Shown: positions 12,942-59,286 of the stretch, in pieces
How positions within the stretch are numbered: the first letter of the stretch is position 1
Layout: the number at the start of each line of letters is the position of its first letter
Source: a virus
Length of the DNA stretch: 64,000 nucleotides
Reading direction: 5' to 3' (one strand)
IMG/VR virus record: IMGVR_UViG_3300031669_000014
Location: 16,565-80,564 of that record
The notes under the pieces: model-generated
What the model saw: the letters and a program-made list of their open reading frames with translations, nothing else
Databases searched by the model: none
What the model was told of the DNA's origin: nothing
Position numbers and translations under genes: made by a program

Positions 12942-13253
12942 TCAGACAGAACATCCAAACCATCCTCCTTCGCGGTCGCTGATCTTATTCTGCCGCCTCT
13001 GATCCATCACCAGCAGGCTGACCTCATCCTCATCCCTGCGAAGGTGCGCCGCTATTCCCGGGCCTGGCGTACCCGATTTCCAAAGTTCTCTAAAATCCCG
13101 TATCTGCACCGGCGTCCAGCAAAAGTCGATATCTTCCAGGATAATCACCGTTTCACCCTGGGGTGCTACGGCTCCCACGGGACGACCTACCTTGCCGGTG
13201 TATGGCTTAGTTGTGGGGATGTTGTGTTTGTGTAACGTGCGATGGGATTGCAT
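12942..13253 (-). CDS. HTH/Myb-like phage protein
   Basis: W....FRELWKSG....IAAHLRR; homolog at 54987-55316. Confidence 0.6.
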   Translation of the reverse strand: MQSHRTLHKHNIPTTKPYTGKVGRPVGAVAPQGETVIILEDIDFCWTPVQIRDFRELWKSGTPGPGIAAHLRRDEDEVSLLVMDQRRQNKISDREGGWFGCSV

Positions 13254-16011
13254 TGGTGGTCACCTCCGGGAAATGTTTCTGCGATACTCTAATGCAAAAC
13301 AACTCAATCTCACTCGCCCACAGAGTTTTTATTCCTGCTCGTTGACCAGCCAGCGGGAAGCCGGCCAGCCCATCAAATAAACTGCCAAGCGTTTTCAGCC
13401 CCAGAACTTCGGTTATCCTCCGCATTATCCACTCGACACATGGTATCGCCAACCCGTTTCCGATTGCTTTATACTTTGCTGTATCCGATGCCCCAGGGAT
13501 GTTAGTCCATCCGTCTGGAAGTCCCTGGAGGCGTTCTGCCTCAAGGGGAGTTAATCTACGGACTGCATAACCGGTAAATACTGGTTTACTTTGACCATCA
13601 TCGGATCTCCGTACTTCTTGAACCTCTGATAATGCTTGTCGCAAAATCCGTATCCCTTTACTAGCTTCCCGCATATTAAGCAAAATTTCTTCTGACTGTG
13701 CTTTAAGTTGTGGCAACTCCGGCAAAGTCTCTCTAAATTCTCCGGTTCGTTGTTTGTCCAATCCTCGTCCTTGTGGTGAACATCCAGCGCATTCGGCTTG
13801 CCACACTCCGAACAGGGACCGGGGGGAATCAATTTCTGCGATCTGCCGTGGTTTGTCCTCCAGTTGTCCGTTTCTATCTTCGGCTTGTTTCTGAACCCTT
13901 CGGCCATACAATTTTGATTGCAATACTTCCTCTTGTTGAAGTGAAGCAAGGATTCCATGTCCCCATTTGGAAAACGCTTCCTCTCCAATTTCTTTCCGCA
14001 GTGCTCGCAATATCTCAATGGTGTTTCTTTCATCGGCATTACCATCAATTTCACTCCCTTTTGGTTCAATAACAATATTGTCAGTGTCGCCCCGATGTGA
14101 CATATTTGCCTTGGCTAAAAGCGTGTTGGCCGGGGCAGGATAAGCCACCGCTTGTCCTCCAGCCAAATCAAGAGTATAAGCAACTTCTTCGCATATCCCT
14201 AACCCATTCGATCCGGTCTGGTCAGTCTTGCATACATAGGTTGGTTGAGCAACAAACGTCTGCTGTTTCATCCCCGGTTCTGCCGCCAATGCCCCGGCTT
14301 TACCTTTTAAATCTCTTACCTCGTCGCGCTGGTTTTGGGCAAAGACTATAGGTTCCACAACATACGTCGTACTACTTGGCTTATCTGCCTTGCTTGCCTG
14401 TGACCGCAGGGTGTGGGTTATTTCATGTTGGCCACCAGGACCGTAAGCCACAGGTATCAATGTTTCCGTCTCCGGGTCATATCGCCGACCGGTCCCGGTC
14501 GTTACGCACTGGGCAACGGCGTGAGCAGCACCCCGGCTATCAAGCGTAAACATCTTGCCATCATCCCTAAAACCCGGCCCTTGCGCCCCAGCTTCGTCCT
14601 TGCGCCCAATAATGCTGTGTTGAATAGCTATACACTGCGTCGCTCGATCAGTGTCCAAAGCACCTATTACGGGTCCGTTTACGTGGTCTTGGCGACCGTT
14701 AAAGGCGATTGGCAGCAGATACAATCCTGTTTTTGCCCCGCCTCCACCACCACCAGCTTTCAAAGTTACGCTTTTCCTGGCATTTATTGTTATACGGTCT
14801 GATGTTTGGTCAAGGTTGACTGTTGTTTCAACGCCATCTCCAACACAGGCGGCAACTTCTTCCCTCGCTTTTCGGCCCTCCGGAGAATCCCCTGACAGGC
14901 TTTGCTCGACAAAAAGTATTTCTCCGGCACATTCGCCTCCAAAATGTCGCTCAAGTTGCTCTGTACAGTTGGATGCTCTATCGAGATAATCATTCCAACG
15001 CTGAACCCATTCCAGTTCTGTAAACAAGTTGCTGCTTGACTGTCTCGCATAGTTCATACACTCCTTTGTCACGGTTAAAAGTAACGATTCCGAGTTGTAG
15101 AAGTCCTGGTAAGAGTTGCTCAACTGAACGATGAGCTCTGCCATGCTCAGACCTAGAAGTGAACAGGTGTAAATTGTCAATTGTGTCGTGTTGCTTATCA
15201 GTGTCGATGTGGTGGACGAGTTCGCCAGGCTGTAGGCTTCTTCCCAAATGTTCTTCCATAACTTCAATATGTCTGAATATCTCTTTTCGTTTGCCGTTCT
15301 TGTCTGGTGGTCTTCTAATTGCATATCCCTTTGTAAATCTATAATCAACGTGCCTAAATGGGACTCCAAGCTTTTGTGCTCTATCAGAAGTATCGTTAAT
15401 GTCTCTGCCAAGTTCTCCAGCAATATCAACCAGTTTTCTTCCGTTTTTATTCCGAATAACCTCATCCTCCGCAGTAGTCCATCTTTTGCATCTTTTTTTA
15501 GGGGATAGTCCGATTTTAACAGCTCGATGCCTGACGCTCGTAATTGTTCTACCAAGACGTATTGCAATATCTCGATGATTAGTTGAGTAATAATGCTCAC
15601 GGATATAATCGTCTTGTTCTGGAGTATATAATTTACGCTTACCCATACTGCAAAAATCCTCCTTCTGCGCTGCGGAACCCCCATATTCTGAGCATCCAAA
15701 ACAGTCATATCAACTACAAAACCAAGTTCCTCCATGGAATCCAATACCGACTCAATATCTTTACTGCCATTACTCGAAAATGCCCCTGGAACATTTTCCC
15801 ATATGCAAACTTTTGGGTATTCTCCGTTGGTGGCTGATTGCATTTCATGGATTATCCTCACCGCCTCGTTAAAAAGTCCTGACCTTGCACCTTCCAGACC
15901 AGCACGTTTACCGGCCACACTCAAGTCCTGGCAGGGTGAGCCGAAGGTTATTATGTCAACGGGGGCTATTCTGCCGCCGTGGATGTCGGTTACACTGCCA
16001 AGGTGCTTCAA
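13207..16011 (-). CDS. C5 cytosine DNA methyltransferase, circularly permuted, with two large insertions
   Basis: Motifs IV (GSPCQ), VI (ENV), VIII (QRRRR), IX (RRLTPLEAERLQG) and X (GNG), then motif I (SLFDGLAG) at the C-terminus. Confidence 0.92.
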   Translation of the reverse strand: MKHLGSVTDIHGGRIAPVDIITFGSPCQDLSVAGKRAGLEGARSGLFNEAVRIIHEMQSATNGEYPKVCIWENVPGAFSSNGSKDIESVLDSMEELGFVVDMTVLDAQNMGVPQRRRRIFAVWVSVNYILQNKTIISVSIITQLIIEILQYVLVEQLRASGIELLKSDYPLKKDAKDGLLRRMRLFGIKTEENWLILLENLAETLTILLIEHKSLESHLGTLIIDLQRDMQLEDHQTRTANEKRYSDILKLWKNIWEEAYSLANSSTTSTLISNTTQLTIYTCSLLGLSMAELIVQLSNSYQDFYNSESLLLTVTKECMNYARQSSSNLFTELEWVQRWNDYLDRASNCTEQLERHFGGECAGEILFVEQSLSGDSPEGRKAREEVAACVGDGVETTVNLDQTSDRITINARKSVTLKAGGGGGGAKTGLYLLPIAFNGRQDHVNGPVIGALDTDRATQCIAIQHSIIGRKDEAGAQGPGFRDDGKMFTLDSRGAAHAVAQCVTTGTGRRYDPETETLIPVAYGPGGQHEITHTLRSQASKADKPSSTTYVVEPIVFAQNQRDEVRDLKGKAGALAAEPGMKQQTFVAQPTYVCKTDQTGSNGLGICEEVAYTLDLAGGQAVAYPAPANTLLAKANMSHRGDTDNIVIEPKGSEIDGNADERNTIEILRALRKEIGEEAFSKWGHGILASLQQEEVLQSKLYGRRVQKQAEDRNGQLEDKPRQIAEIDSPRSLFGVWQAECAGCSPQGRGLDKQRTGEFRETLPELPQLKAQSEEILLNMREASKGIRILRQALSEVQEVRRSDDGQSKPVFTGYAVRRLTPLEAERLQGLPDGWTNIPGASDTAKYKAIGNGLAIPCVEWIMRRITEVLGLKTLGSLFDGLAGFPLAGQRAGIKTLWASEIELFCIRVSQKHFPEVTTNAIPSHVTQTQHPHN
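13551..14045 (-). CDS. HNH endonuclease nested out of frame in the MTase gene
   Basis: CSECG..DVHHKDEDWTNNEPENLERLCRSCH; GGGAGTG RBS before ATG 14045. Confidence 0.85.
   Translation of the reverse strand: MVMPMKETPLRYCEHCGKKLERKRFPNGDMESLLHFNKRKYCNQNCMAEGFRNKPKIETDNWRTNHGRSQKLIPPGPCSECGKPNALDVHHKDEDWTNNEPENLERLCRSCHNLKHSQKKFCLICGKLVKGYGFCDKHYQRFKKYGDPMMVKVNQYLPVMQSVD
14790..15050 (-). CDS. Alternative-frame MTase beta-polypeptide-like protein
   Basis: LSDILEANVPEKYFLSSKACQGILRRAEKRGKKLP resembles the M.EcoHK31I beta-type alternative-frame product; AAAGGAG RBS. Confidence 0.7.
   Translation of the reverse strand: MRDSQAATCLQNWNGFSVGMIISIEHPTVQSNLSDILEANVPEKYFLSSKACQGILRRAEKRGKKLPPVLEMALKQQSTLTKHQTV
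14990..15646 (-). CDS. HNH endonuclease with N-terminal Myb/HTH-like repeats, nested out of frame in the MTase gene
   Basis: RHIEVMEEHLGRSL...ELVHHIDTDKQHDTIDNL...SEH; AAGGAGG RBS. Confidence 0.85.
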   Translation of the reverse strand: MGKRKLYTPEQDDYIREHYYSTNHRDIAIRLGRTITSVRHRAVKIGLSPKKRCKRWTTAEDEVIRNKNGRKLVDIAGELGRDINDTSDRAQKLGVPFRHVDYRFTKGYAIRRPPDKNGKRKEIFRHIEVMEEHLGRSLQPGELVHHIDTDKQHDTIDNLHLFTSRSEHGRAHRSVEQLLPGLLQLGIVTFNRDKGVYELCETVKQQLVYRTGMGSALE

Positions 16012-16026
16012 CGGTGATCACCTCGC

Positions 16027-16464
16027 CTAAAAGTTAACATCAATCTTTTCCCCTTGCAGGATCCGCCGGTCTGTCTGCGTCGCCCAGCTCGGGGCCATCG
16101 GCCAGCCGTTTAATCTGTCGCCTGCCTTACACGGGCACCGGCAGTAGCGATCTTCCCCTTCCTGTAAAACTGTGATATAACCCCCGCCGCCACAAACGGA
16201 GCAACCCGTTTTTTTTAGTGGCTGAAAGGCTGTATTGCGCTGATCGTCCTTAATACTTTGTATTGCGCCCTGGATATCTGCAACCGTGGGGAAGAATTTT
16301 GCCGTGGCCAGCACCTTTTTAAGCGCTTCTTTAACCTGCGGATAAGGTAATTCCCCTAACATTTCTTCCCAAGTCATCCCAATTTGTACAAGTTCTTTAT
16401 TCTGGATACTTGGGAAACTTCCATAAGCTAGAGTTATTAAACTTTTAATCTCCTGTTTATTCAC
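16027..16464 (-). CDS. Helicase loader/inhibitor-like protein (G39P-like) with Zn finger
   Basis: W.EML.ELPY..V..AL..V....KFFPTVADI; directly after the initiator. Confidence 0.7.
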   Translation of the reverse strand: MNKQEIKSLITLAYGSFPSIQNKELVQIGMTWEEMLGELPYPQVKEALKKVLATAKFFPTVADIQGAIQSIKDDQRNTAFQPLKKTGCSVCGGGGYITVLQEGEDRYCRCPCKAGDRLNGWPMAPSWATQTDRRILQGEKIDVNF

Positions 16465-17227
16465 TGTTCGCCCACTCCTCTAAAGCCTGTCTTCCGGTTG
16501 ACCAACCTTCCTGGCTTTGTCCGCCCTCATGGTATTCATCCTCCCAACCTTTAGCATTTAGCCAGGTTGCCGGATGGGGAATCCATTTCCCATTTTCCTT
16601 TGTCCACCCCGCCGAAGTCTTGGCCCGCTTTAACGCATCAAGAATGACTGCTAGAAGCTGTTCGTCCGGTTTGATTTTATTCCATGCTTTTTCAGCCTGG
16701 CCCTTAGACTTTTTATTTGGATATGATTGCCAAAATTCGTCAAACATTTCTTGATGATTTATTTTTTCTTGCGCAAGTATTTTAAGATCTTTATTCTTTA
16801 CATTCTTTACATTCTTTACATTCTTGTTTGTGTTCATTTGTTGTTCATTTGCTGTTCGTTTGTTGTTCATTTGTTGTTCATTTTGTTGTTCAGGTTGGTC
16901 CCCTTCCCCCTGATAAAAAGCCCAATTCTCAATGGTTACAATAGAAAATTTGTTGTTCGGCTGGATGACCAATCTTTCACTCGATTCTAATTTTTTTACG
17001 TAACGATACAGTGACGAGGGATGTAGCTTTAATTCTGCCGCAGCCTTGTCTCTGCCGAAGACAAATTGCCCTGGTTTTAGGATAACTTTTTGAAGTCCAA
17101 CAAGTTGCTCATGCTCTTTATGACTGGCTTTAAGTAAACACCACACCCAAACTTTAAGGAGGTTCTCATTGTCAAATAACGGGTTGTCTAATAAACACCG
17201 GTGAAGCTTGATGTAGCCGCTTGCCAT
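16457..17227 (-). CDS. Phage replication initiator (replisome organizer)
   Basis: GYIKLHR N-terminus, internal repeats, FDEFW..YP.K and PHPATWLN C-terminal domain. Confidence 0.88.
   Translation of the reverse strand: MASGYIKLHRCLLDNPLFDNENLLKVWVWCLLKASHKEHEQLVGLQKVILKPGQFVFGRDKAAAELKLHPSSLYRYVKKLESSERLVIQPNNKFSIVTIENWAFYQGEGDQPEQQNEQQMNNKRTANEQQMNTNKNVKNVKNVKNKDLKILAQEKINHQEMFDEFWQSYPNKKSKGQAEKAWNKIKPDEQLLAVILDALKRAKTSAGWTKENGKWIPHPATWLNAKGWEDEYHEGGQSQEGWSTGRQALEEWANSE
16791..16892. repeat. Iteron-like repeats, putative lytic origin (phage A)
   Basis: Tandem ATTCTTTAC and repeated TTGTTGTTCAT units inside the initiator gene. Confidence 0.7.
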
Positions 17228-23906: not shown

Positions 23907-24155
23907 CTATACATCGGGACAAGTTGGGATCTTATCGTTTCTGGTTTCTATAACGGAAACCTCATCTGCAAAAAAAATATCTTCAATCGACATATTAAGT
24001 CTTTCAGAGATTAATTTTGCTTCAAACATGGAAATTCTTATGGCTCCAGTTTCCTTCTTATAATATGCCGCTGCCGTTTTTAAACCTAGTAATTCGGCCA
24101 TTTCTATCGCTGAGACGCTTTTATTATTTCTTATTGTGCGAAGTTTTTCATACAT
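23907..24155 (-). CDS. Cro-like XRE regulator
   Basis: 82-aa XRE HTH protein divergent from the repressor. Confidence 0.88.
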   Translation of the reverse strand: MYEKLRTIRNNKSVSAIEMAELLGLKTAAAYYKKETGAIRISMFEAKLISERLNMSIEDIFFADEVSVIETRNDKIPTCPDV

Positions 24156-24308: not shown

Positions 24309-24710
24309 TTGGTAAATGTGGGGATTGGTAAAAGATTGAGAGAATTAAGGGAGCGGGAAGGGCTTACTCAGGAAGAGTTGGGTAAAATAATCAATCAAAA
24401 AAAGTCCAATATCTCCAAATATGAAAATGGCAAATTACAGCCAAGTCTTGAAACAATAGAATCTCTTTTAGGATTCTTTGGAGTTTCGCCTAATTATTTT
24501 TTTAATTATACTCCCCATGCCGAACACAACGAAAAAAATAAAACGGCCTATTTCAAACCAACTAACCAGATCCCAGAAGAGAAACGGAAACTCATAGAAA
24601 AACTTCTGGAATTCAATGATAATGATTACAAAAAAATTGAGGCTATTGCCGAAGTTTTCATTCAGATAGACAGATCAAAGAACGAGCAGGCAGCCGCAAT
24701 GGGAAGCTAA
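24309..24710 (+). CDS. CI-like XRE repressor
   Basis: RLRELRE..GLTQEELG...NISKYENG HTH. Confidence 0.9.
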   Translation: MVNVGIGKRLRELREREGLTQEELGKIINQKKSNISKYENGKLQPSLETIESLLGFFGVSPNYFFNYTPHAEHNEKNKTAYFKPTNQIPEEKRKLIEKLLEFNDNDYKKIEAIAEVFIQIDRSKNEQAAAMGS

Positions 24711-24826
24711 TTCTTTTTCTGCCAAGGTGGATAAGGCGAATCCTGAAGCGAAAAAAATAAGAACCCCCGGAGCCGATCAGAAGGGTTCTCGTACATAAGA
24801 CAAATCACTAAATTAGGAGATGAATT

Positions 24827-24958
24827 GTGTTTATGTGTAATAATTATGACTTACTTATAATTTGCTATAAAAGCGGTCAGATACCGGAGGATGAATGGCA
24901 GGAAATTTTAAAAGACGAGGTATTTTATTGTTATTATCAAAAACAAATAAGGTTATAA
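24827..24958 (+). CDS. Small hypothetical protein (43 aa, not in the ORF track)
   Basis: AGGAGA RBS and GTG start; followed by a terminator. Confidence 0.5.
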   Translation: MFMCNNYDLLIICYKSGQIPEDEWQEILKDEVFYCYYQKQIRL

Positions 24959-24964
24959 AATAAA

Positions 24965-24995
24965 AATAACCCCCTCGTGTGAGGGGGTTTTATTC
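24965..24995. terminator. Bidirectional intrinsic terminator
   Basis: AACCCCCTC-GTGT-GAGGGGGTT flanked by A and T tracts. Confidence 0.8.
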
Positions 24996-25010
24996 TGCGT
25001 CGTAATTTAG

Positions 25011-25039
25011 TTGACTAGCCATATGTTGGGGCGTATAAT
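25011..25039 (+). promoter_or_regulatory. sigmaA promoter (sense RNA)
   Basis: TTGACT-17 nt-TATAAT. Confidence 0.85.
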
Positions 25040-25057
25040 GGAAGGGACAACCATATA

Positions 25058-25137
25058 ATGAAAGTAACCCCCCGGTTAGACCTCCGAAGGGTTACAGGCG
25101 GGACAACCTCACAACAGGCCGGCCCGACGGTTACTGT
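25058..25137 (-). ncRNA. ~80-nt antisense countertranscript
   Basis: Own promoter; two hairpins whose G-U pairs form only on this strand; the second is followed by UUUCAUU. Confidence 0.75.
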
Positions 25138-25143
25138 ACTAAG

Positions 25144-25172
25144 ATTGTAACTTACATTTTTAGTATAGTCAA
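25144..25172 (-). promoter_or_regulatory. sigmaA promoter (antisense RNA)
   Basis: TTGACT-17 nt-TACAAT on the minus strand. Confidence 0.8.
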
Positions 25173-25184
25173 GACAGAATTCCC

Positions 25185-25219
25185 GGCTTTTTGTGAGGTT
25201 CCTCGCAAGAAGCCTTTTT
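25185..25219 (+). terminator. Attenuator (conditional terminator)
   Basis: 13-bp stem plus TTTTT; its 5' arm can instead pair with 25105-25122 (17 of 18 positions). Confidence 0.75.
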
Positions 25220-25610
25220 GATTATCCGAAAAGGTTTCGGGTAAATAGGCTGATAACCAAGCATGCCCGGGTAGTGACCGGGATTATAACCGTTAGATGG
25301 GGATGTTTTTCCTTCCCAGAATTGAAACCGTGCCACGATGCTAACGAACCTATGATGCACCCTGGAAACCGTGGTGTAGAGGCTACGAGCAGATGAGAGA
25401 TGTCACCGATGCTAACCAAGCAGGCTGTAAGATATGGTGGACCTGGGGGCCGTCAAAAGACTAGGTGATGCGGCGTAATAGCCGCCTGTTGAAGGGACGA
25501 CCGACCGAGACTAGGCCAAGTTCCAAGACAGTGTTTTCCCGCCAGCGCGGGATCTCTGTCTCTAAAACTCCCTCCCTCAACCGGCCCCCATCCTAAAATA
25601 ATCACTCCGG
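25220..25610 (+). ncRNA. Long structured non-coding RNA segment (candidate replication primer)
   Basis: Several hairpins and long-range TGGGGGCCG/CGGCCCCCA pairing; no credible ORF. Confidence 0.5.
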
Positions 25611-25619
25611 AGGAATTAC

Positions 25620-26057
25620 ATGCACTACCTAAACACGAAAGAAGCAGCAGCAATCCTAAACTGTGGGACCAAGAATGTTACCCTGATGTGTGCTGCCGGG
25701 AAGTTTCCAGGGTCCAAAAAGGTGATGGGGAAGAAAACGGACGAGTGGCGCATACCGGCCCAGGAAGTAATTGACTACCAGGCTAACAAGGAAGTTGAGG
25801 CCGAAGTTTTGCCGCCTGAAAGCCATGAACTGGTCACGGTTAAGTCTCTGGCTGATTTTTTTATGGATGAACGGAGAAGGAACGATGCTGAACATGATGA
25901 AACAAGGAGAATACTTGAAGAAGAAGTAAAAAGGAGGAATGAAGAAATAATGGAGTTACGCGGGATACTGGCGAAACAGGGGGAAGAAGTCGCGGTAGTT
26001 TGGGGGAAGGTTGCGGAGATTGAAAAGAAAAAGCGCCCGTGGTGGCGCTGGTGGTAG
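25620..26057 (+). CDS. HTH, coiled-coil and aromatic-tail protein (pSK1 Par-like architecture)
   Basis: YLNTKEAAAIL excisionase-type HTH, EEVKRRNEEIMELR coiled coil, KKRPWWRWW tail; GGAGG RBS. Confidence 0.7.
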   Translation: MHYLNTKEAAAILNCGTKNVTLMCAAGKFPGSKKVMGKKTDEWRIPAQEVIDYQANKEVEAEVLPPESHELVTVKSLADFFMDERRRNDAEHDETRRILEEEVKRRNEEIMELRGILAKQGEEVAVVWGKVAEIEKKKRPWWRWW

Positions 26058-26061
26058 TTTA

Positions 26062-26505
26062 TTAAATGGATTGTTTTAACTCTTTTTCATATTCATAATA
26101 TTCATATAGATTTCCGTGATAACTTTCTATTAATTTATCTTTGTTTTCTTTTATGGCAAAACAACCAGTAAATACATAGCATTTCTTAAGGGATTCAATA
26201 TCATTGACTGTGACACCAACTATTTTCTTGTCCAATATCTTTTCTGCTTGATCGCTCCCACCATGCCACCATTGACCATTACAGTGAATTATTTTGCCAT
26301 TTTCTAGTGATATATCGAATTCGCGTCCAGCAAAGGCTTTGAATCTACCCCAAGGTGCTTCATAATATAAACAATCCACAAATGTTTCTGATTCATCTAT
26401 GCCAATTATAATGTTGTCATATTTTTTGTATTTAAATTTAATTTCATTTTTCATAACCAAAGCAACACCGCTATTAAATTTTACCAATGCCATTAATTCG
26501 TTCAT
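26062..26505 (-). CDS. Hypothetical protein (AT-rich)
   Basis: 147-aa ORF with RBS. Confidence 0.65.
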   Translation of the reverse strand: MNELMALVKFNSGVALVMKNEIKFKYKKYDNIIIGIDESETFVDCLYYEAPWGRFKAFAGREFDISLENGKIIHCNGQWWHGGSDQAEKILDKKIVGVTVNDIESLKKCYVFTGCFAIKENKDKLIESYHGNLYEYYEYEKELKQSI

Positions 26506-26508
26506 AAC

Positions 26509-26877
26509 TCATTCCCCCTCAGGCCAGAATATCTCCATAAACAATTCCCCGCTACACCTCACATTAAAACACGCCTTTCCGCGTACTTTCAGCATCGAAG
26601 GGCTGTCCAATACGCTGCGCTTGATCTCCGTGGTTACATTAGCCGGGAACAGTGTTACGACCTCCTGTAGCCCTACATAAAAACGGATATATCCATCGTC
26701 GGTAGTCTCGTACTCTTCGCAGATGATCCGGATCATGGCCCCGTGGCGGTAACTGAAAATATGGGGCGGTCCGTACTTTTTGAGGCAGACTTGCAGTTCA
26801 AGGCTCACTTTGAGTCCTCCTTCCGTTGGCGGTATTCGTCCCGATCTAACTTTTCCAGCGCAACCAGTTTCAACCAC
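26509..26877 (-). CDS. Hypothetical protein
   Basis: ORF in operon; true start may be the internal GTG after GGAGGA. Confidence 0.5.
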   Translation of the reverse strand: MVETGCAGKVRSGRIPPTEGGLKVSLELQVCLKKYGPPHIFSYRHGAMIRIICEEYETTDDGYIRFYVGLQEVVTLFPANVTTEIKRSVLDSPSMLKVRGKACFNVRCSGELFMEIFWPEGE

Positions 26878-48966: not shown

Positions 48967-48994
48967 TGTTCCACTAATCAGCATTATGTAACCT
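48967..48994 (+). other. dif-like Xer recombination site (phage B)
   Basis: TGTTCCACTAA-TCAGCA-TTATGTAACCT; 26 of 28 identical to the phage A site. Confidence 0.8.
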
Positions 48995-55321: not shown

Positions 55322-55765
55322 CTAAAAATTAACAGTAACCTTTTCCCCTTGCAGGATCCGCCGGTCTGTCTGCGTCGCCCAGCTCGGGGCCATCGGCCAG
55401 CCGTTTAATCTGTCGCCTGCTTGGCACGGGCACCGGCAGTAGCGCTCCTCGCCATCCTGCAAAATTACTCTAAAGCCACCACCTCCACAAACAGTACATC
55501 CCGTTTTTTTTAGCGGCTGAAAGGAAGTGTTTCGCTGATCGTCTTTGATGCTTTGTATTGCCCCCTGGATATCTGCAACCGTGGGGAAGAATTTTGCCGT
55601 GGCCAGCACCTTTTTAAGCGCCTCTTTAACCTGCTGATAAGGTAATTTCCCCAACATTTCTGCCCAAAGTTTTGCCGTTTCAGCTAATTCCTTGTTTTGC
55701 ATACCTGGAAAATTAGCTGCCGCAAAAGTTATTAAGTTTTTAATTTCCTGCTTAGTCACTACCAT
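55322..55765 (-). CDS. Helicase loader/inhibitor-like protein (G39P-like)
   Basis: Homolog of 16027-16464. Confidence 0.7.
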   Translation of the reverse strand: MVVTKQEIKNLITFAAANFPGMQNKELAETAKLWAEMLGKLPYQQVKEALKKVLATAKFFPTVADIQGAIQSIKDDQRNTSFQPLKKTGCTVCGGGGFRVILQDGEERYCRCPCQAGDRLNGWPMAPSWATQTDRRILQGEKVTVNF

Positions 55766-56495
55766 TCACCCACCTATCAAGACTTTGTTCTGCTACTGAT
55801 TTTTGTTGCACTGGGGAAGGTCTTGTTTTATTTTCTTCTTCTTCAAGCCTGGCAATAACCCAATTCAAAACCGCCCGATAATCTGATTTATACCGCTTCC
55901 CATTAGCCCCCTTGTAGTTGTCCAATATTTCAACGCACCGATTAAAACGTTCTTCGCTTCCGAGTTTCGCCACAAGTGATGAGTATTCATCATTAGTCAG
56001 GCTGACAAATTCGGCATACTTGAATTTTTGTTGTAGGGGGGGAGGGGGGTTAAGATCTTTATTCTTTACATTCTTTACATTCTTTACATTCTTGTTTGTG
56101 TTCATTTGTTGTTCATTTGTTGTTCGTTTGTTGTTCATTTGTTGTTCATTTTGTTGTTCAGGCTGATCCCCTTCACCCTGATAAAAAACCCAATTCTCAA
56201 TGGTTACAATAGAAAATTTGTTGTTCGGCTGGATGACCAAACTTTCACTCAATTCTAATTTTTTTACGTAACGATACAGTGACGAGGGATGTAGCTTTAA
56301 TTCTGCCGCAGCCTTGTCTCTGCCGAAGACAAATTGCCCTGGTTTTAGGATAACTTTTTGAAGTCCAACAAGTTGTTCATGCTCTTTATGACTGGCTTTA
56401 AGTAAACACCAAACCCAAACTTTAAGGAGGTTTTCATTATCAAATAACGGATTGTCTAATAAACATCTGTGAAGTTTGATGTATCCGCTTGCCAT
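55752..56495 (-). CDS. Phage replication initiator
   Basis: N-terminus near-identical to 16457-17227; different C-terminal domain (YKSDYRAVLNW). Confidence 0.88.
   Translation of the reverse strand: MASGYIKLHRCLLDNPLFDNENLLKVWVWCLLKASHKEHEQLVGLQKVILKPGQFVFGRDKAAAELKLHPSSLYRYVKKLELSESLVIQPNNKFSIVTIENWVFYQGEGDQPEQQNEQQMNNKRTTNEQQMNTNKNVKNVKNVKNKDLNPPPPLQQKFKYAEFVSLTNDEYSSLVAKLGSEERFNRCVEILDNYKGANGKRYKSDYRAVLNWVIARLEEEENKTRPSPVQQKSVAEQSLDRWVNGSD
56059..56160. repeat. Iteron-like repeats, putative lytic origin (phage B)
   Basis: Same repeat units as 16791-16892. Confidence 0.7.
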
Positions 56496-56506: not shown

Positions 56507-57199
56507 CTAAAATCCAAGTGCCAGCTGATATCCCTTGCCGCTTTCCTTCTCAAGTGCCATAAGATGCCTGACACGGGCTTCCTGCTCCTCTTTCCTGTCT
56601 TTGCCTGGGGCAAGCCGCTTCACTTTTTCTCGGTTCTTAAACACCCACCACGTACTGTCAACTTGGGTAAATGGGAATTGTGTCAGTATCCGCTCACTGG
56701 TAATTCCTAAAGCATGAAACCTTCCCTCGGGGTGCCGGCTGTAAACTTGCTCCAACCAGTAAACTTTATCTCGGTATGGAAGTCCAACCGTTCCACCAAG
56801 GCCAACTAGCGCGTATTTTGCAATAAGTAGCTCAAGTAGTTCCCATGGCTCATTGTAGTGAAAAACAGGTATCGGGCTTAGCCCTGCCGCCTCCATGGTA
56901 GCCTGATTTACTGCCGTATCCTCCGGATTTCCAACTACATCAAGGTTAAAATACTGGGTTATGTGGTGCTCCCGGATATAGTCCATGTAATCATCAAGGC
57001 TAATGCTTCGACCGCGCTTCCATGCGCTATATGCTCCGGAGTCAAGTAGTACCTCAAACCCATACTCCCGGATAATCTTCCAGCAGGAGTAGGTTGGTGG
57101 CTCAGCATAAGAAAGTATTATCCGCTTTCCACCGGCTCGAGCCAGGGTATGTAGAGTATTAGGTCTTTCCGTTCCCCCGAAGTACACTTCCAATTTCAT
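56507..57199 (-). CDS. TGT-fold (DpdA-like) transglycosylase
   Basis: LLDSGAYS, NLDVVG, PIPVFH, VGLGG, FHALG and VDSTWW motifs. Confidence 0.65.
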   Translation of the reverse strand: MKLEVYFGGTERPNTLHTLARAGGKRIILSYAEPPTYSCWKIIREYGFEVLLDSGAYSAWKRGRSISLDDYMDYIREHHITQYFNLDVVGNPEDTAVNQATMEAAGLSPIPVFHYNEPWELLELLIAKYALVGLGGTVGLPYRDKVYWLEQVYSRHPEGRFHALGITSERILTQFPFTQVDSTWWVFKNREKVKRLAPGKDRKEEQEARVRHLMALEKESGKGYQLALGF

Positions 57200-57358: not shown

Positions 57359-58204
57359 CTAAGCTCTAACCGCTTTCATCTTTAAATTTACCGTCGCTGG
57401 CCTGGCCCAAAAACGTTGAAACCTTGCCCACTCTGTATTTCTCTGGCCCTTCTTATCCCGGTACAACATAGCCATGGGCAGGAATCCGGCCTTGATAGTG
57501 TCGTTCAGTCGTTTCTCGGCCTTGTCAAAGGTGTCACCAGGATAACCAATAAGCACATATGCTCTCAACACGTGGGAGGCGGTTGTAAATCCGGCTTTTA
57601 ATAGCTTTTTACCAGCCCCTACAAGTGGTTCGTATTTAATAGGGTTATCGTAAGCGAAGAATATTTCCTTCGGCCTCAAGCCCCGCAAAAGCTCGATATG
57701 CCAATCTTTAAGTCTTTTGGCTTCAAGGCCCCCGGTAAACATTGGCCTGCCATACTTCTGGCGCTTAAACATAGCGAATACCTTTTTAATATGATCGTCA
57801 GAACAGGCCAGTAAATTGTCGTCGAGAACATTGTTACCCTCTTTAATCTCTAGTTCCCGGATTACTCCACCTTCGCGGATGGGCACTTGACAGAAAAATA
57901 CACCATTCACTTGACACTTATTTGGGCATCCCCTGGAAGTGATCACATAGCCTTTTTTGATGTATCTCCCCGGTATAAACTCACCGCCTGGCTCATCCAG
58001 GGCCGGGCCGCCGATCTTAACCGGTGCTATGTGCCGCCATTGTTCAGCTAGTTGATGAGCCTTGTCTAGGTCGTAGGTAAACGCCACGGAAATGTGAACC
58101 TCGTCTATGGGCGGTAGAAACATTCCAGGGGCATCAAAGAAGCATAATTCATCATTTGGCGTGGCTTTTGTTATTCTTGGAAATACCCTTGCTATTGCTA
58201 CCAT
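57359..58204 (-). CDS. Radical SAM protein
   Basis: TSRGCPNKC...FC.VP, LDDNLLA and YVLIGY. Confidence 0.75.
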   Translation of the reverse strand: MVAIARVFPRITKATPNDELCFFDAPGMFLPPIDEVHISVAFTYDLDKAHQLAEQWRHIAPVKIGGPALDEPGGEFIPGRYIKKGYVITSRGCPNKCQVNGVFFCQVPIREGGVIRELEIKEGNNVLDDNLLACSDDHIKKVFAMFKRQKYGRPMFTGGLEAKRLKDWHIELLRGLRPKEIFFAYDNPIKYEPLVGAGKKLLKAGFTTASHVLRAYVLIGYPGDTFDKAEKRLNDTIKAGFLPMAMLYRDKKGQRNTEWARFQRFWARPATVNLKMKAVRA

Positions 58205-58218
58205 TCCGCACCTCCTTG

Positions 58219-58338
58219 TCACTCTATCGCTAACCGATTAAATAACGGGGCATCGTCCTCTATCCGCCGCCGTGACATCTCCACATACTTCGGTTTTAAC
58301 TCGATCCCGATATACCGCCGCCCGTGTCTGAGTGCCAC
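58219..58338 (-). pseudogene. C-terminal remnant of an N4/N6 DNA methyltransferase
   Basis: VALRHGRRYIGIELKPKYVEMSRRRI with no start codon or catalytic motifs. Confidence 0.7.
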
Positions 58339-58369: not shown

Positions 58370-59170
58370 TCATGGCTTTACCGCGGGCATCTCGTTATGT
58401 TCGCGACCATCAAGGAGGCGGCCAGCGGCTTTTTTGCCGACACGATACATAGGGCATGGTTCATCCATCCCGGCCCCACTGTGGACATTCTCATATCTGG
58501 TTTTGCCGTCAAATATTGGACTATATTCACCCCACTGCTTAAAAAAGTAGGGTACTCCTGCCGCCTGACACTGATCCCGGTCTAGCCTTGCCCAATCCGG
58601 GTGCATCGGTCTTGCGCCGGGACCGCTTTCTCCGCCAGTGATTATCAGAGCCTTTCTACCCAGGGCTAAAAATTCGGATGGATACACGATTGACCCAAGC
58701 GCAGGTTCGTGGCTTACGAAATATACCGCCGCCGGTGTCTGTAAAAGTAACGGAATCCGCTTATCAGCCTGCTCCTGGTTCTCGGCGGTTACACCCAGCC
58801 AGACATTTGGATACCCATTACCCCAATCAGCAGGCAGCCTATCTGCTATGTTTAACTCTCTCTTGGTAAGTAGTTGATAAGTTAGGTGTGGAGTTTTCCT
58901 GATAATTTCCCATGCTTCGGGACGCCATTCGTCCGCATCCTCGATAAAAAAGTCACTCCAGGAACAGACAAATACATTAGCAGGATCGCTCCATTTCAGC
59001 GGCAGATTAAATGTATTTTTAGCTGATCTAATAACCGTAGCGGGATCCTGCCCATACCTTTTCTTATCGCGGTACATATAGCAGTTTTCGCAGCCACTAC
59101 TTACTTTTCTGCATCCCTGCCAAGGGTTCCATGTATGTTTTGTCCATTCGATTGCGCTATTTTCACCCAT
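58370..59170 (-). CDS. Gp37/Gp68 (DUF5131) family radical-SAM-like protein
   Basis: IEWT..TWNPW.GC.KVS.GC.NCY, LTKR, GGESG and FFKQWG. Confidence 0.92.
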   Translation of the reverse strand: MGENSAIEWTKHTWNPWQGCRKVSSGCENCYMYRDKKRYGQDPATVIRSAKNTFNLPLKWSDPANVFVCSWSDFFIEDADEWRPEAWEIIRKTPHLTYQLLTKRELNIADRLPADWGNGYPNVWLGVTAENQEQADKRIPLLLQTPAAVYFVSHEPALGSIVYPSEFLALGRKALIITGGESGPGARPMHPDWARLDRDQCQAAGVPYFFKQWGEYSPIFDGKTRYENVHSGAGMDEPCPMYRVGKKAAGRLLDGREHNEMPAVKP

Positions 59171-59286
59171 TCTTCTTCCCCTCCTTCGGCGGCGGCACAA
59201 CCCCGCCGCAGCCCTCGTACGGACATGGCATAGGCGTTTGCGTGTTGGCTGAGTAGCTCGGGCGCTTACATTTAGGGCAAATCCGT

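Follow-up and report, generated by a model that had tools for sequence, protein, structure and literature searches.

The closest described counterparts of the locus reported here are found in the cluster A mycobacteriophages, in which RepA cassettes alternate in the integrase slot with a 'non-RepA' origin, an RNA-based, ORF-free ori of ∼ 600 bp (PMC7157519). The phages with a non-RepA ori are RedRock, Alma, LadyBird, Gladiator and Et2Brutus (Wetzel et al. 2020, PMC7157519). Parts of the arrangement also recall the antisense attenuation of rep mRNA in pT181 and pIP501 (Inc18), the RNA II/RNA I pair of ColE1, the iteron-type theta replicons of phage-plasmids, and the proteins RocS (S. pneumoniae) and pSK1 Par, whose architecture is described in PMC11500499.

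The DNA analysed here (the window) is a stretch of 64,000 nucleotides, positions 16,565 to 80,564 of the 80.5-kb IMG/VR record IMGVR_UViG_3300031669_000014, and comes from an uncultured phage of soil. Its segment 24965-26057 resembles the mycobacteriophage case in that a temperate phage without integrase carries an ORF-free cassette in the integrase slot, by a putative partition function, and in that related phages hold a Rep-protein cassette at the same place. This precedent, RepA against a ∼ 600-bp non-coding ori (PMC7157519), weakens the original prediction that the maintenance system is new. The two differ in several respects. No sequence similarity is detectable, and the window has an explicit antisense attenuator. 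Partition is by parABS in the mycobacteriophages and would fall in the window phage to a single wHTH/coiled-coil protein with no ParA. Their hosts are Actinomycetota, whereas the host here is probably a member of the Bacillota. Finally, ori function was demonstrated by experiment in the mycobacteriophages and is putative in the window.

In the record, two phage genomes of ∼ 42 kb, related to each other, are joined in tandem, without host DNA. Two strains may have been merged in its assembly, which leaves uncertain the phage body that carries the window cassette. The record begins and ends within phage DNA, and a chromosomal location of the 'prophage' is not supported. The genes that frame the cassette are as follows.

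16457-17227 and 55752-56495: DnaD-like organiser of the lytic replication module
23907-24155, minus strand: Cro-like HTH_3 gene, first of the leftward early operon (Pfam HTH_3, E 1e-4)
24309-24710, plus strand: CI-like XRE repressor gene (Pfam HTH_3, E 1e-15; PHROG transcriptional repressor/regulator families)

The Cro-like gene has a homologue in the relative L007 (L007:5712-5960), and the order repressor, cassette, lysis genes is common to the window, L007 and the complete relative G001 (47.9 kb, terminal repeats). No tyrosine or serine recombinase was found in the whole 80.5-kb record and no integrase in G001; AAA_31 ParA is missing from both, and no parABS adjoins the cassette. The earlier statement that integrase and ParA are not recognisable therefore holds for the record and for the complete relative. 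Two other elements were not supported: no RepL (PF05732), and hence no RepL-like module, was found in the record, and the best candidate for a dif-like host Xer site (48967-48994) matches B. subtilis dif at 18/28 positions. Its right arm matches at 10/11, a level that chance alone should produce about once over the record. Because a separate lytic replication module is present, a replicon in the slot would be a second one, as in P1.

The front end of the cassette contains these elements.

24968-24989, both strands: bidirectional intrinsic terminator, GC-rich 9-bp stem with T-runs on each strand
25011-25039, plus strand: sense promoter, TTGACT / 17 nt / TATAAT, 11/12 consensus matches
25046-25222, plus strand: sense leader with antisense target, antiterminator helix and attenuator (z −6.9 against dinucleotide shuffles)
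25055-25137, minus strand: predicted antisense RNA of ∼ 83 nt, two stem-loops (ends inferred)
25095-25064, minus strand: antisense terminator hairpin, a terminator-like site forming the 3' stem-loop of the predicted antisense RNA
25098-25122 with 25183-25206, plus strand: antiterminator helix (predicted helices)
25144-25172, minus strand: antisense promoter, TTGACT / 17 nt / TACAAT, 10/12 consensus matches
25185-25222, plus strand: attenuator, 13-bp terminator hairpin and T-run (−18.9 kcal/mol)

The terminator, promoter, antisense RNA and attenuator originally claimed were thus all found in the predicted anatomy of 24965-26057, and this regulatory anatomy is evident in silico. Promoter-like sites number 12 in the cassette region (4.7 ± 2.0 in shuffles) and terminator-like sites 8 (2.2 ± 1.5 in shuffles). 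The terminator at 24968-24989 is conserved in L005/L008, L006 and L007 and is a putative insulator between the repressor operon and the cassette. The two promoters converge across 25011-25172, inside the leader. Counterparts of the sense promoter lie at 7349-7377 of L007 and 6690-6718 of L008, and the convergent antisense promoters of both relatives sit at the matching relative position with 11/12 consensus matches each. These findings support the view of an insulated, antisense-controlled unit between repressor and lysis genes.

The predicted fold of the antisense 83-mer has an energy of −35.1 kcal/mol. In the sense leader, the attenuator hairpin (25185-25214) is followed by TTTTT and competes with the inverted repeat 25105-25122/25183-25200. 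Under constrained folding, the attenuator terminator appeared in the MFE structure only with the antisense target (25055-25137) blocked. We infer that antisense pairing would take away the antiterminator arm, so that the terminator at 25185-25222 forms. In G001, a simple MFE test did not give an antiterminator switch like that of the window. Three features are shared with pT181 and pIP501: the convergent antisense promoter within the leader, the short structured antisense RNA and, in silico, an antiterminator and a terminator that exclude each other, the antisense target being part of the antiterminator arm. Unlike those plasmids, the window has no rep ORF downstream of its leader, no Rfam match to their RNAs and no identified CopR-like repressor. 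A 30-codon ORF at 25058 was considered as a type I toxin and rejected, being non-hydrophobic and not conserved in relatives. Against a role in plasmid maintenance, the attenuator might do no more than adjust how much of the protein encoded downstream is made.

What this front end controls in related phages bears directly on its meaning. Six relatives have the same slot and front end, and what lies there is an initiator-like gene of the wHTH (HTH_36) type together with iterons, an AT-rich stretch and a DnaA box, with the same HTH_17 gene downstream of this initiator-iteron part. The terminator and the convergent promoters, 130-165 bp apart, are found in L007 and G001/L008, where their sequences differ. 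The cargo is an HTH_36/DnaD_N-like ORF, which in L007, L009 and G001 lies under the attenuated transcript; the cognate tandem iterons differ with each ORF variant, and the DnaA box immediately upstream of the HTH_17 gene is conserved, reading TTATCCACA or the inverse of it. Initiator gene, iterons, AT-rich stretch and DnaA box occur together in unit A of the record, L006, L007 and L009. Homologues of the HTH_36 protein take the Rep position adjoining ParB on a Thermaerobacter plasmid and are replisome organisers in Clostridium and Bacillus phage-plasmids. The slot content of the relatives amounts to a putative rep-ori-par module, and its iteron-type replicon lends much credibility to the proposal that a replicon occupies the integrase slot. 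It shares the wHTH initiator, tandem iterons, AT-rich stretch and DnaA box with iteron-type theta replicons and phage-plasmids (P1 repA/oriR; Clostridium, Bacillus), and, as in P1-type phage-plasmids, it is additional to the lytic replication module.

The window cassette differs from such replicons in that initiator gene, tandem iterons, AT-rich unwinding stretch and DnaA box are all absent from it, as is ParAB. Between the leader and the HTH_17/coiled-coil gene lie instead ∼ 400 bp without any ORF. Among these relatives, then, an initiator-iteron part and non-coding DNA are exchanged within the same slot, an exchange that is plain in silico. The window segment is made up of two parts.

25223-25443, plus strand: ORF-free, repeat-rich segment with no excess structure (z −0.3 on either strand)
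25444-25590, strand and molecule type ambiguous: closed multi-branch structured domain of 147 nt (from RNA and DNA fold z)

No ORF of more than 77 codons occurs in the cassette upstream of the HTH_17 gene, and a Pfam search of all six frames of 25150-25640, with a limit of E 10, detected no protein relic. Rfam gave no family at gathering score and chance-level matches only up to E 10, and a tRNA/tmRNA search found none. Searches with the non-coding cassette gave no homologue by blastn against phages and plasmids, and negative or chance results in IMG/VR pattern scans with blast checks and in a 20-mer scan of GTDB genomes. None of the loci reached through the HTH_17 protein has a homologue of it. 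The non-coding cassette joins the terminator and the start of HTH_17 without a break in an independent sample of soil as well, and parts of the cassette recur at ∼ 97% identity in sediment and groundwater sequencing runs. RNA libraries were absent from the runs listed as containing it.

One possible, if somewhat improbable, account of these data is that the cassette is only a regulated long 5' leader. The replicon would have been lost or never there, and the attenuator and the ∼ 400 nt would tune expression of the HTH_17 gene, whose product could be a regulator, a tether or an excisionase-like factor. The phage would persist through a repressor-controlled origin in the early operon, by pseudolysogeny or by lytic growth only. 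The HTH_17 gene is indeed the sole ORF under the sense promoter, the ori hallmarks of the relatives are missing, the middle 220 nt are unstructured, and the ribosome-binding site GGAGG has a potential pairing partner in the C-rich run CCCTCCCTC (25570-25578). Set against this, an insulated strong promoter with attenuation in the style of copy control is elaborate for a small DNA-binding protein, and the same front end drives the initiator genes of the relatives. The excess of short direct repeats and the ∼ 97% identity at which the cassette is kept in soil, sediment and groundwater samples also argue for more than a leader.

The repeats and the 147-nt domain were analysed in turn. Three direct repeats fall within 25223-25443, CGATGCTAAC, TAACCAAGCA and GAAACCGTG, each present twice. 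Over 25040-25620 there are 13 repeated 8-mers against 3.2 expected (0/1000 shuffles), and inside 25223-25612 there are 9 against 1.3 (3/1000 shuffles). The direct repeats, at spacings of 41, 50, 71 and 159, are neither tandem nor helically phased. The 147-nt domain is closed by a helix of 25444-25452 with 25582-25590. As RNA it gives z −3.3 to −3.6 on the plus strand and −4.6 on the minus strand, and with DNA energy parameters −3.9 and −4.1; since its stability is matched on the other strand and in DNA form, nothing favours a role as RNA in particular. Taken whole, the plus strand of 25223-25612 is not more stable than shuffles (z −1.1; 12/100 fold as well). The claim of a ∼ 390 nt structured RNA therefore holds in part, with excess structure in the leader and in 25444-25590 and none in the intervening 220 nt.

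These features could also mark a site that acts as DNA. The repeats would be a centromere- or iteron-like array to which the HTH_17 protein, the early DnaD-like organiser or a host factor binds. The 147-nt domain, with its inverted repeats, would serve as a signal for single-strand initiation (primosome assembly), and the transcript would only activate or traverse the site. We judge this unlikely. It is consistent with the enrichment of direct repeats and with a domain whose stability on the minus strand and under DNA parameters is equal or greater. Direct repeats are the binding sites of BldC, the best fold match to the HTH_17 protein. pSK1 Par and RacA bind repeat arrays adjoining their own genes (PMC11500499). 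The irregular placing of the repeats speaks against such an array. So does the HTH_17 DNA-binding domain, which is nearly invariant among relatives, yet the upstream sequences of those relatives contain none of the repeat words of the window.

The coding part of the cassette comprises two features.

25609-25613, plus strand: ribosome-binding site GGAGG of the HTH_17 gene
25620-26057, plus strand: gene for the HTH_17 winged-HTH/coiled-coil protein with a basic-aromatic C-tail (Pfam HTH_17, E 3e-8)

In the AF2 model of the protein (pLDDT 80), a linker connects a winged HTH to a helix of 65 residues (74-138). Its fold matches are BldC (Z 8.5), Xis (Pukovnik Xis, 7.3), RacA (Z 5.6, rmsd 2.6 Å over 58 aligned residues), RdfS (5.6) and the pSK1 Par DBD (8csh; Z 4.6, rmsd 2.7 Å, 52/53 aligned). 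The fold, common to Xis, TerS and BldC, fits excisionases and small terminases equally. An in-register parallel homodimer was predicted with a score of 0.44, compared with 0.01 for the best control; the mark set for this score is attained by 20 of 30 solved homo-pairs and by 1 of 23 single chains. The dimer runs have at least 80% of contacts in common (pLDDT 71). In all 10 homologues the C-terminus carries a lysine cluster followed by a PFWRWW-type or PGWIARLLG-type tail, which we take to be akin to the tail of MinD. The Pfam scan gives HTH_17 only, with no DUF536, and the protein gave nothing significant against PDB sequences, plasmids and NCBIfam. PADLOC returned a weak HTH match (mad1), the ESM Atlas unnamed HTH_17 clusters, and PHROG weak matches to excisionase families. 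No relative was found in GTDB genomes, and so neither a host genome nor an integration site is available. A homologue with 89% identity (P0001) is encoded on an ENA contig that is the likeliest candidate for a second copy of the cassette.

The N-terminal MerR-type winged HTH (∼ 55 residues), the predicted central parallel coiled coil and the short basic-hydrophobic C-terminal tail are shared with RocS, pSK1 Par and RacA. By this modelled architecture, that of the one-protein segregation factors RocS and pSK1 Par, the term 'Par-like' appears justified, and the protein most likely tethers or segregates DNA. It differs from RocS and Par in lacking the DUF536 that both possess, and its fold is closer to BldC, Xis and TerS than to the RocS/Par/RacA group.

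Resemblance to excisionases raises another explanation. Antisense-gated operons adjoin the immunity region in P22 and P1, and the cassette could serve in secondary immunity or antirepression, on the pattern of immI in P22 (sar/ant) or P1 (c4/ant), or else in excision. The antisense RNA would gate an antirepressor- or Xis-like HTH_17 protein, and integration would depend on XerCD or another host recombinase, or on one that escaped detection. The excisionase fold (Pukovnik Xis, RdfS) and the weak PHROG matches point this way. We nevertheless regard it as highly unlikely, given that neither the record nor the complete G001 has an integrase, that the record has no convincing dif-like site, and that in the relatives the operon includes an initiator-like ORF as well as iterons and a DnaA box. 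The long coiled coil and basic-hydrophobic C-tail are foreign to Xis and Ant; compared with Xis and other RDFs, the protein has an extra 65-residue coiled coil and no cognate integrase in the record or G001.

Our preferred reading, which we hold tentatively and with less than even confidence, is that 24965-26057 is a cassette for plasmid-state maintenance of an integrase-less temperate phage, its non-coding part being a protein-independent, transcript-dependent origin. The strong promoter would fire into the leader, where the ∼ 83-nt convergent antisense RNA would set read-through by transcription attenuation, as in pT181/pIP501. In the relatives, the read-through transcript would encode the winged-HTH initiator, followed by iterons, AT-rich stretch, DnaA box and HTH_17 gene; in the window, ∼ 400 bp of non-coding DNA (the repeat-rich stretch and the 147-nt domain) would substitute for the initiator-iteron part. 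The HTH_17 protein would act in DNA tethering or segregation through its MerR/Xis-type winged HTH, parallel coiled coil and basic-hydrophobic tail. By analogy with the mycobacteriophage non-RepA origins, the non-coding DNA would have origin activity of its own, and the non-coding replacement of the initiator may be an RNA-based origin. Several points tell against this reading: the missing initiator gene, tandem iterons, AT-rich stretch and DnaA box, the 220 nt without excess structure, the indifference of the 147-nt domain to strand and molecule type, the outcome of the MFE test in G001 and the missing DUF536; moreover, RNA-primed replicons are not known to be established in Bacillota. ColE1 offers a parallel: there too ∼ 575 nt separate a promoter from the end of a transcript that has no ORF, no initiator protein is used, and the antisense RNA is complementary to the 5' part of the transcript and ends near the sense start. 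The window cassette differs in that its antisense RNA is predicted to terminate the transcript, not to refold a pre-primer, and it has no RNAI/RNAII homology and no detected cer/Xer site, and belongs to a different phylum.

The more specific form of this proposal, a Rep-independent, transcript-dependent theta origin in a Bacillota phage-plasmid, with an antisense-attenuated origin transcript setting copy number and a single RocS/Par-like membrane tether replacing ParABS, we consider doubtful. If true, it would extend RNA-based plasmid and prophage origins beyond Enterobacteria and Actinomycetota for the first time, with a minimal replicon of ∼ 1.1 kb. Together with its one-protein stabiliser, this self-regulating replicon would provide a vector backbone for poorly tractable Bacillota. 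The replacement of integrase by rep-ori-par and of initiator by RNA origin would recur in unrelated phage lineages and would not be peculiar to mycobacteriophages, and phage-plasmids would be undercounted by protein-based replicon searches. Without the RNA-origin claim, the data still describe a new phage-plasmid lineage of soils and sediments, at the family level, that is temperate, lacks an integrase and combines antisense control of a wHTH initiator with iterons, a DnaA box and a RocS/Par-like protein.

Self-comparison of the 80,564-bp IMG/VR virus record (the window is its bases 16565–80564) revealed two related, mosaic ∼42-kb phage genomes in tandem, here called units A and B. Matching segments are spaced about 40.4–42.7 kb apart and are 77–96% identical; the units share 92.6% identity in their tail-fibre and lysis region but have terminases and portals of different types, Terminase_3 in one unit and GpA_ATPase in the other. 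The arrangement may be genuine (a tandem or concatemer) or an assembly chimera of two strains. The CheckV call of '100% complete' masks this two-genome make-up. Both termini of the record lie within phage genes and it contains no host DNA. Each unit encodes a terminase, a portal, tail genes and an amidase endolysin; its early operon, directed leftward, includes RusA, recombination genes and a DnaD-like replisome organiser. Directly after its portal gene, an unusual site for such an enzyme, unit A carries a 414-aa glycosyltransferase-family-2/methyltransferase fusion (889–2133). In the early region of unit B, a Tgt/DpdA-like queuine tRNA-ribosyltransferase homologue (56507–57199), a radical-SAM protein (57359–58222) and a DUF5131 protein (58370–59200) suggest a 7-deazaguanine-type DNA modification set; unit A lacks a set of this type and has instead a 934-aa C5-cytosine methylase fusion (13207–16011).

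The cassette at 24965–26057 has the repressor of unit A on one side and the lysis genes of unit B, whose own immunity region falls past the record end, on the other. This is where a temperate phage of such layout would hold its integrase and attP. As originally predicted, neither a tyrosine/serine recombinase nor an AAA_31 ParA is encoded in the whole 80.5-kb record. RepL is equally absent from it, so that the RepL-like module of that prediction was not found, and the proposed host Xer site was not supported: the record's closest dif-like match (48967–48994) agrees with Bacillus subtilis dif at 18/28 positions, near chance expectation. It is probably the sequence that had been meant, matches the right arm of dif at 10/11 positions, and is located in unit B, in the space that separates the genes for the large and small terminase subunits.

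Features of the cassette and its surroundings (window positions)
Record start to about 24,700: unit A
23907–24155: Cro-like gene of unit A, divergent from the CI-like gene
24309–24710: CI-like gene of unit A, divergent from the Cro-like gene
About 25,000 to record end: unit B
24968–24989: bidirectional terminator
25011–25039, sense: promoter, TTGACT/17 nt/TATAAT
25095–25064, antisense: terminator hairpin of the antisense RNA
25172–25144, antisense: convergent promoter, TTGACT/17 nt/TACAAT
25185–25214, sense: terminator, 13 bp followed by TTTTT
25620–26057: HTH_17 gene

The predicted regulatory unit of terminator, promoter, antisense RNA and attenuator is present, with site counts well above those in shuffled sequence (12 promoter-like sites vs 4.7 ± 2.0; 8 terminator-like sites vs 2.2 ± 1.5). 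The leader (25046–25222) is far more stable than its shuffles (z −6.9). Its minimum-energy fold pairs 25098–25122 with 25183–25206, so that the sense terminator cannot form; when the antisense target (25055–25137) is blocked, the terminator hairpin forms (−18.9 kcal/mol). Countertranscript-driven attenuation is established for pT181 and pIP501, and the fold predicted here would follow the same switch logic. Such a switch could also belong to a regulated long leader that serves the HTH_17 gene, a rival reading that we hold to be only slightly less probable than the favoured one given below.

Between attenuator and HTH_17 gene the cargo is non-coding: 25223–25619 contains no ORF of more than 77 codons, and no Pfam relic was detected in any frame. 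The ∼390-nt structured RNA of the original prediction holds up only in part: the whole stretch is no more stable than its shuffles (z −1.1), and its first 220 nt have z about −0.3 on both strands. A 147-nt domain (25444–25590) is predicted as a closed multi-branch fold with z −3.3 to −3.6 on the plus strand, −4.6 on the minus strand and about −4 on either strand with DNA parameters. No Rfam family matched. Short direct repeats are enriched in the unstructured part, with 13 repeated 8-mers in 25040–25620 (3.2 expected; reached in 0/1000 shuffles) and 9 in 25223–25612 (1.3 expected; 3/1000). Repeats and DNA-level folding bear on a reading of the cargo as a DNA repeat array with a single-strand initiation signal, which we consider unlikely. 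The window cargo has no tandem iterons, AT-rich stretch or DnaA box.

We found no homologue of the non-coding part in IMG/VR, GTDB genomes, or phage or plasmid collections. An independent soil-sample contig covers 24759–25648, and the arrangement is therefore not an artefact of this assembly. A sediment run contains 25336–25578 at ∼97% identity, and a groundwater run contains 25135–25243 and diverges beyond, which suggests a recombination joint right after the attenuator. Across other soil samples, reads cover the repressor region ∼10 times as deeply as the cassette, and loose ends branch right after it; the population thus holds alternative cassettes behind the same repressor. A second variable slot separates the repressor gene from the cassette terminator (a 43-codon ORF at window 24798–24958; a 222-aa secreted Cu_amine_oxidN1 protein at L007:6628–7296, in a relative's contig). 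Beside the cassette, a low-GC segment (30–35%; 26056–26736) carries two minus-strand ORFs of no known function, 26062–26505 (phrog_26990) and most of 26509–26877, neither with a match in PADLOC, Pfam or NCBIfam. The segment is missing from contigs of two further samples (joints at 26026>26737 and 26055>26737) and has the look of an accessory (moron) insertion.

The HTH_17 protein is modelled as a winged HTH (residues 1–56), a disordered linker and a single long helix (74–138). Structure comparison of the model places the N-terminal domain in the MerR/Xis winged-HTH fold.

Structural matches of the modelled N-terminal domain
BldC: Z 8.5, rmsd 2.2 Å, 54 aligned
Pukovnik Xis: Z 7.3, rmsd 2.4 Å, 53 aligned
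Small-terminase HTH: Z 6.9, rmsd 2.4 Å, 54 aligned
RacA: Z 5.6, rmsd 2.6 Å, 58 aligned
pSK1 Par DNA-binding domain: Z 4.6, rmsd 2.7 Å, 52/53 aligned

By itself the modelled fold would give no basis for choosing among these families. An Xis-like fold next to a repressor might be read as an immunity or excision module, which we regard as improbable. For helix 74–135 the prediction is a parallel homodimer in register (score 0.44 vs 0.01 for the best control; pLDDT 71; runs share at least 80% of contacts), the mark for this score being reached by 20/30 solved homo-pairs and 1/23 single chains. In 10/10 homologues the C-terminus is a lysine cluster followed by a PFWRWW-type or PGWIARLLG-type tail. 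In RocS and pSK1 Par, a winged HTH is combined with a parallel coiled coil and with a helix at the C-terminus that binds the membrane (PMC11500499). The modelled protein likely works like such a tether; since DUF536, common to RocS and pSK1 Par, is absent in a Pfam scan, we do not assign it to their family.

Alignment of its four database homologues (62–89% identity) retrieved seven loci. Slot architecture is conserved, although the non-coding part aligns with 0/7 of these loci. L007, a 42-kb contig, reads Cro-like and CI-like genes (the CI-like C-terminus nearly identical to the window's), terminator and convergent promoters (10/12 and 11/12 consensus), a 161-aa HTH_36/DnaD_N-like ORF, HTH_17, small genes and endolysin. 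The genome G001 (47.9 kb, complete, bounded by direct terminal repeats) contains locus L008 and has the same terminator, convergent 11/12 promoters, an antisense terminator and, directly downstream of the antisense promoter, a sense terminator; next come an HTH_36–HNH ORF, then an ORF of 191 aa, then HTH_17. This complete genome encodes no tyrosine/serine recombinase or ParA. The record's first 313 bases are part of the unit A cassette. A further wHTH ORF has its 3′ end here, and the stretch also holds tandem repeats of CCGTAT type, an AT-rich word that occurs twice, a DnaA box in inverse orientation and another HTH_17 gene. Tandem iterons are specific to each ORF variant (3 × 24 nt in L007, 3 × 29 nt in L009, 2 × 26 nt in L006), and a DnaA box, TTATCCACA, is conserved directly before HTH_17 in relatives. 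On a Thermaerobacter plasmid, homologues of the HTH_36 ORF stand in the Rep position, adjoining ParB; on phage-plasmids of Clostridium botulinum, C. difficile and the Bacillus cereus group they are replisome organisers. Taken together, these sequences indicate that, besides having a lytic replication module, the relatives carry in their integrase slot an initiator under antisense control, an origin with iterons and, downstream, a conserved DNA-binding protein; judged by sequence, the layout is what a plasmid-prophage replicon would be expected to have.

Two relatives have gained HNH endonuclease genes within the cassette, between DnaA box and HTH_17 gene in one (L002:∼270–800) and fused to the HTH_36 domain in G001 (L008:6915–7472), and may represent homing-type traffic into the origin region. 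At L009:6564–10572 the HTH_36 and HTH_17 pair adjoins a 205-aa tyrosine recombinase, a Replic_Relax protein and an FtsK/SpoIIIE ATPase, the context of an integrative or mobilisable element and not of a phage lysis module; the module thus moves between element types.

For the window, we tentatively favour a cassette for maintenance in the plasmid state, whose non-coding cargo would be a putative transcript-dependent origin. The host is probably a member of the Bacillota, which we infer from YopX, the Cu_amine_oxidN1 wall-binding domains of the endolysin, promoters and ribosome-binding sites that fit the consensus typical of Bacillota main (sigma-A) promoters, and nearest portals from Bacillus and Paenibacillus phages (24% identity). 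The concept is already published, for mycobacteriophages: those of cluster A, about 20% of which lack an integrase, are the closest published parallel (PMC7157519). In their integrase slot a RepA cassette alternates with an RNA-based origin that is free of ORFs and ∼600 bp long, and this cassette dichotomy recurs here in an unrelated lineage. What is new is that an antisense attenuator, a cargo lacking Rep and a putative single-protein tether come together, and the lineage that carries them.
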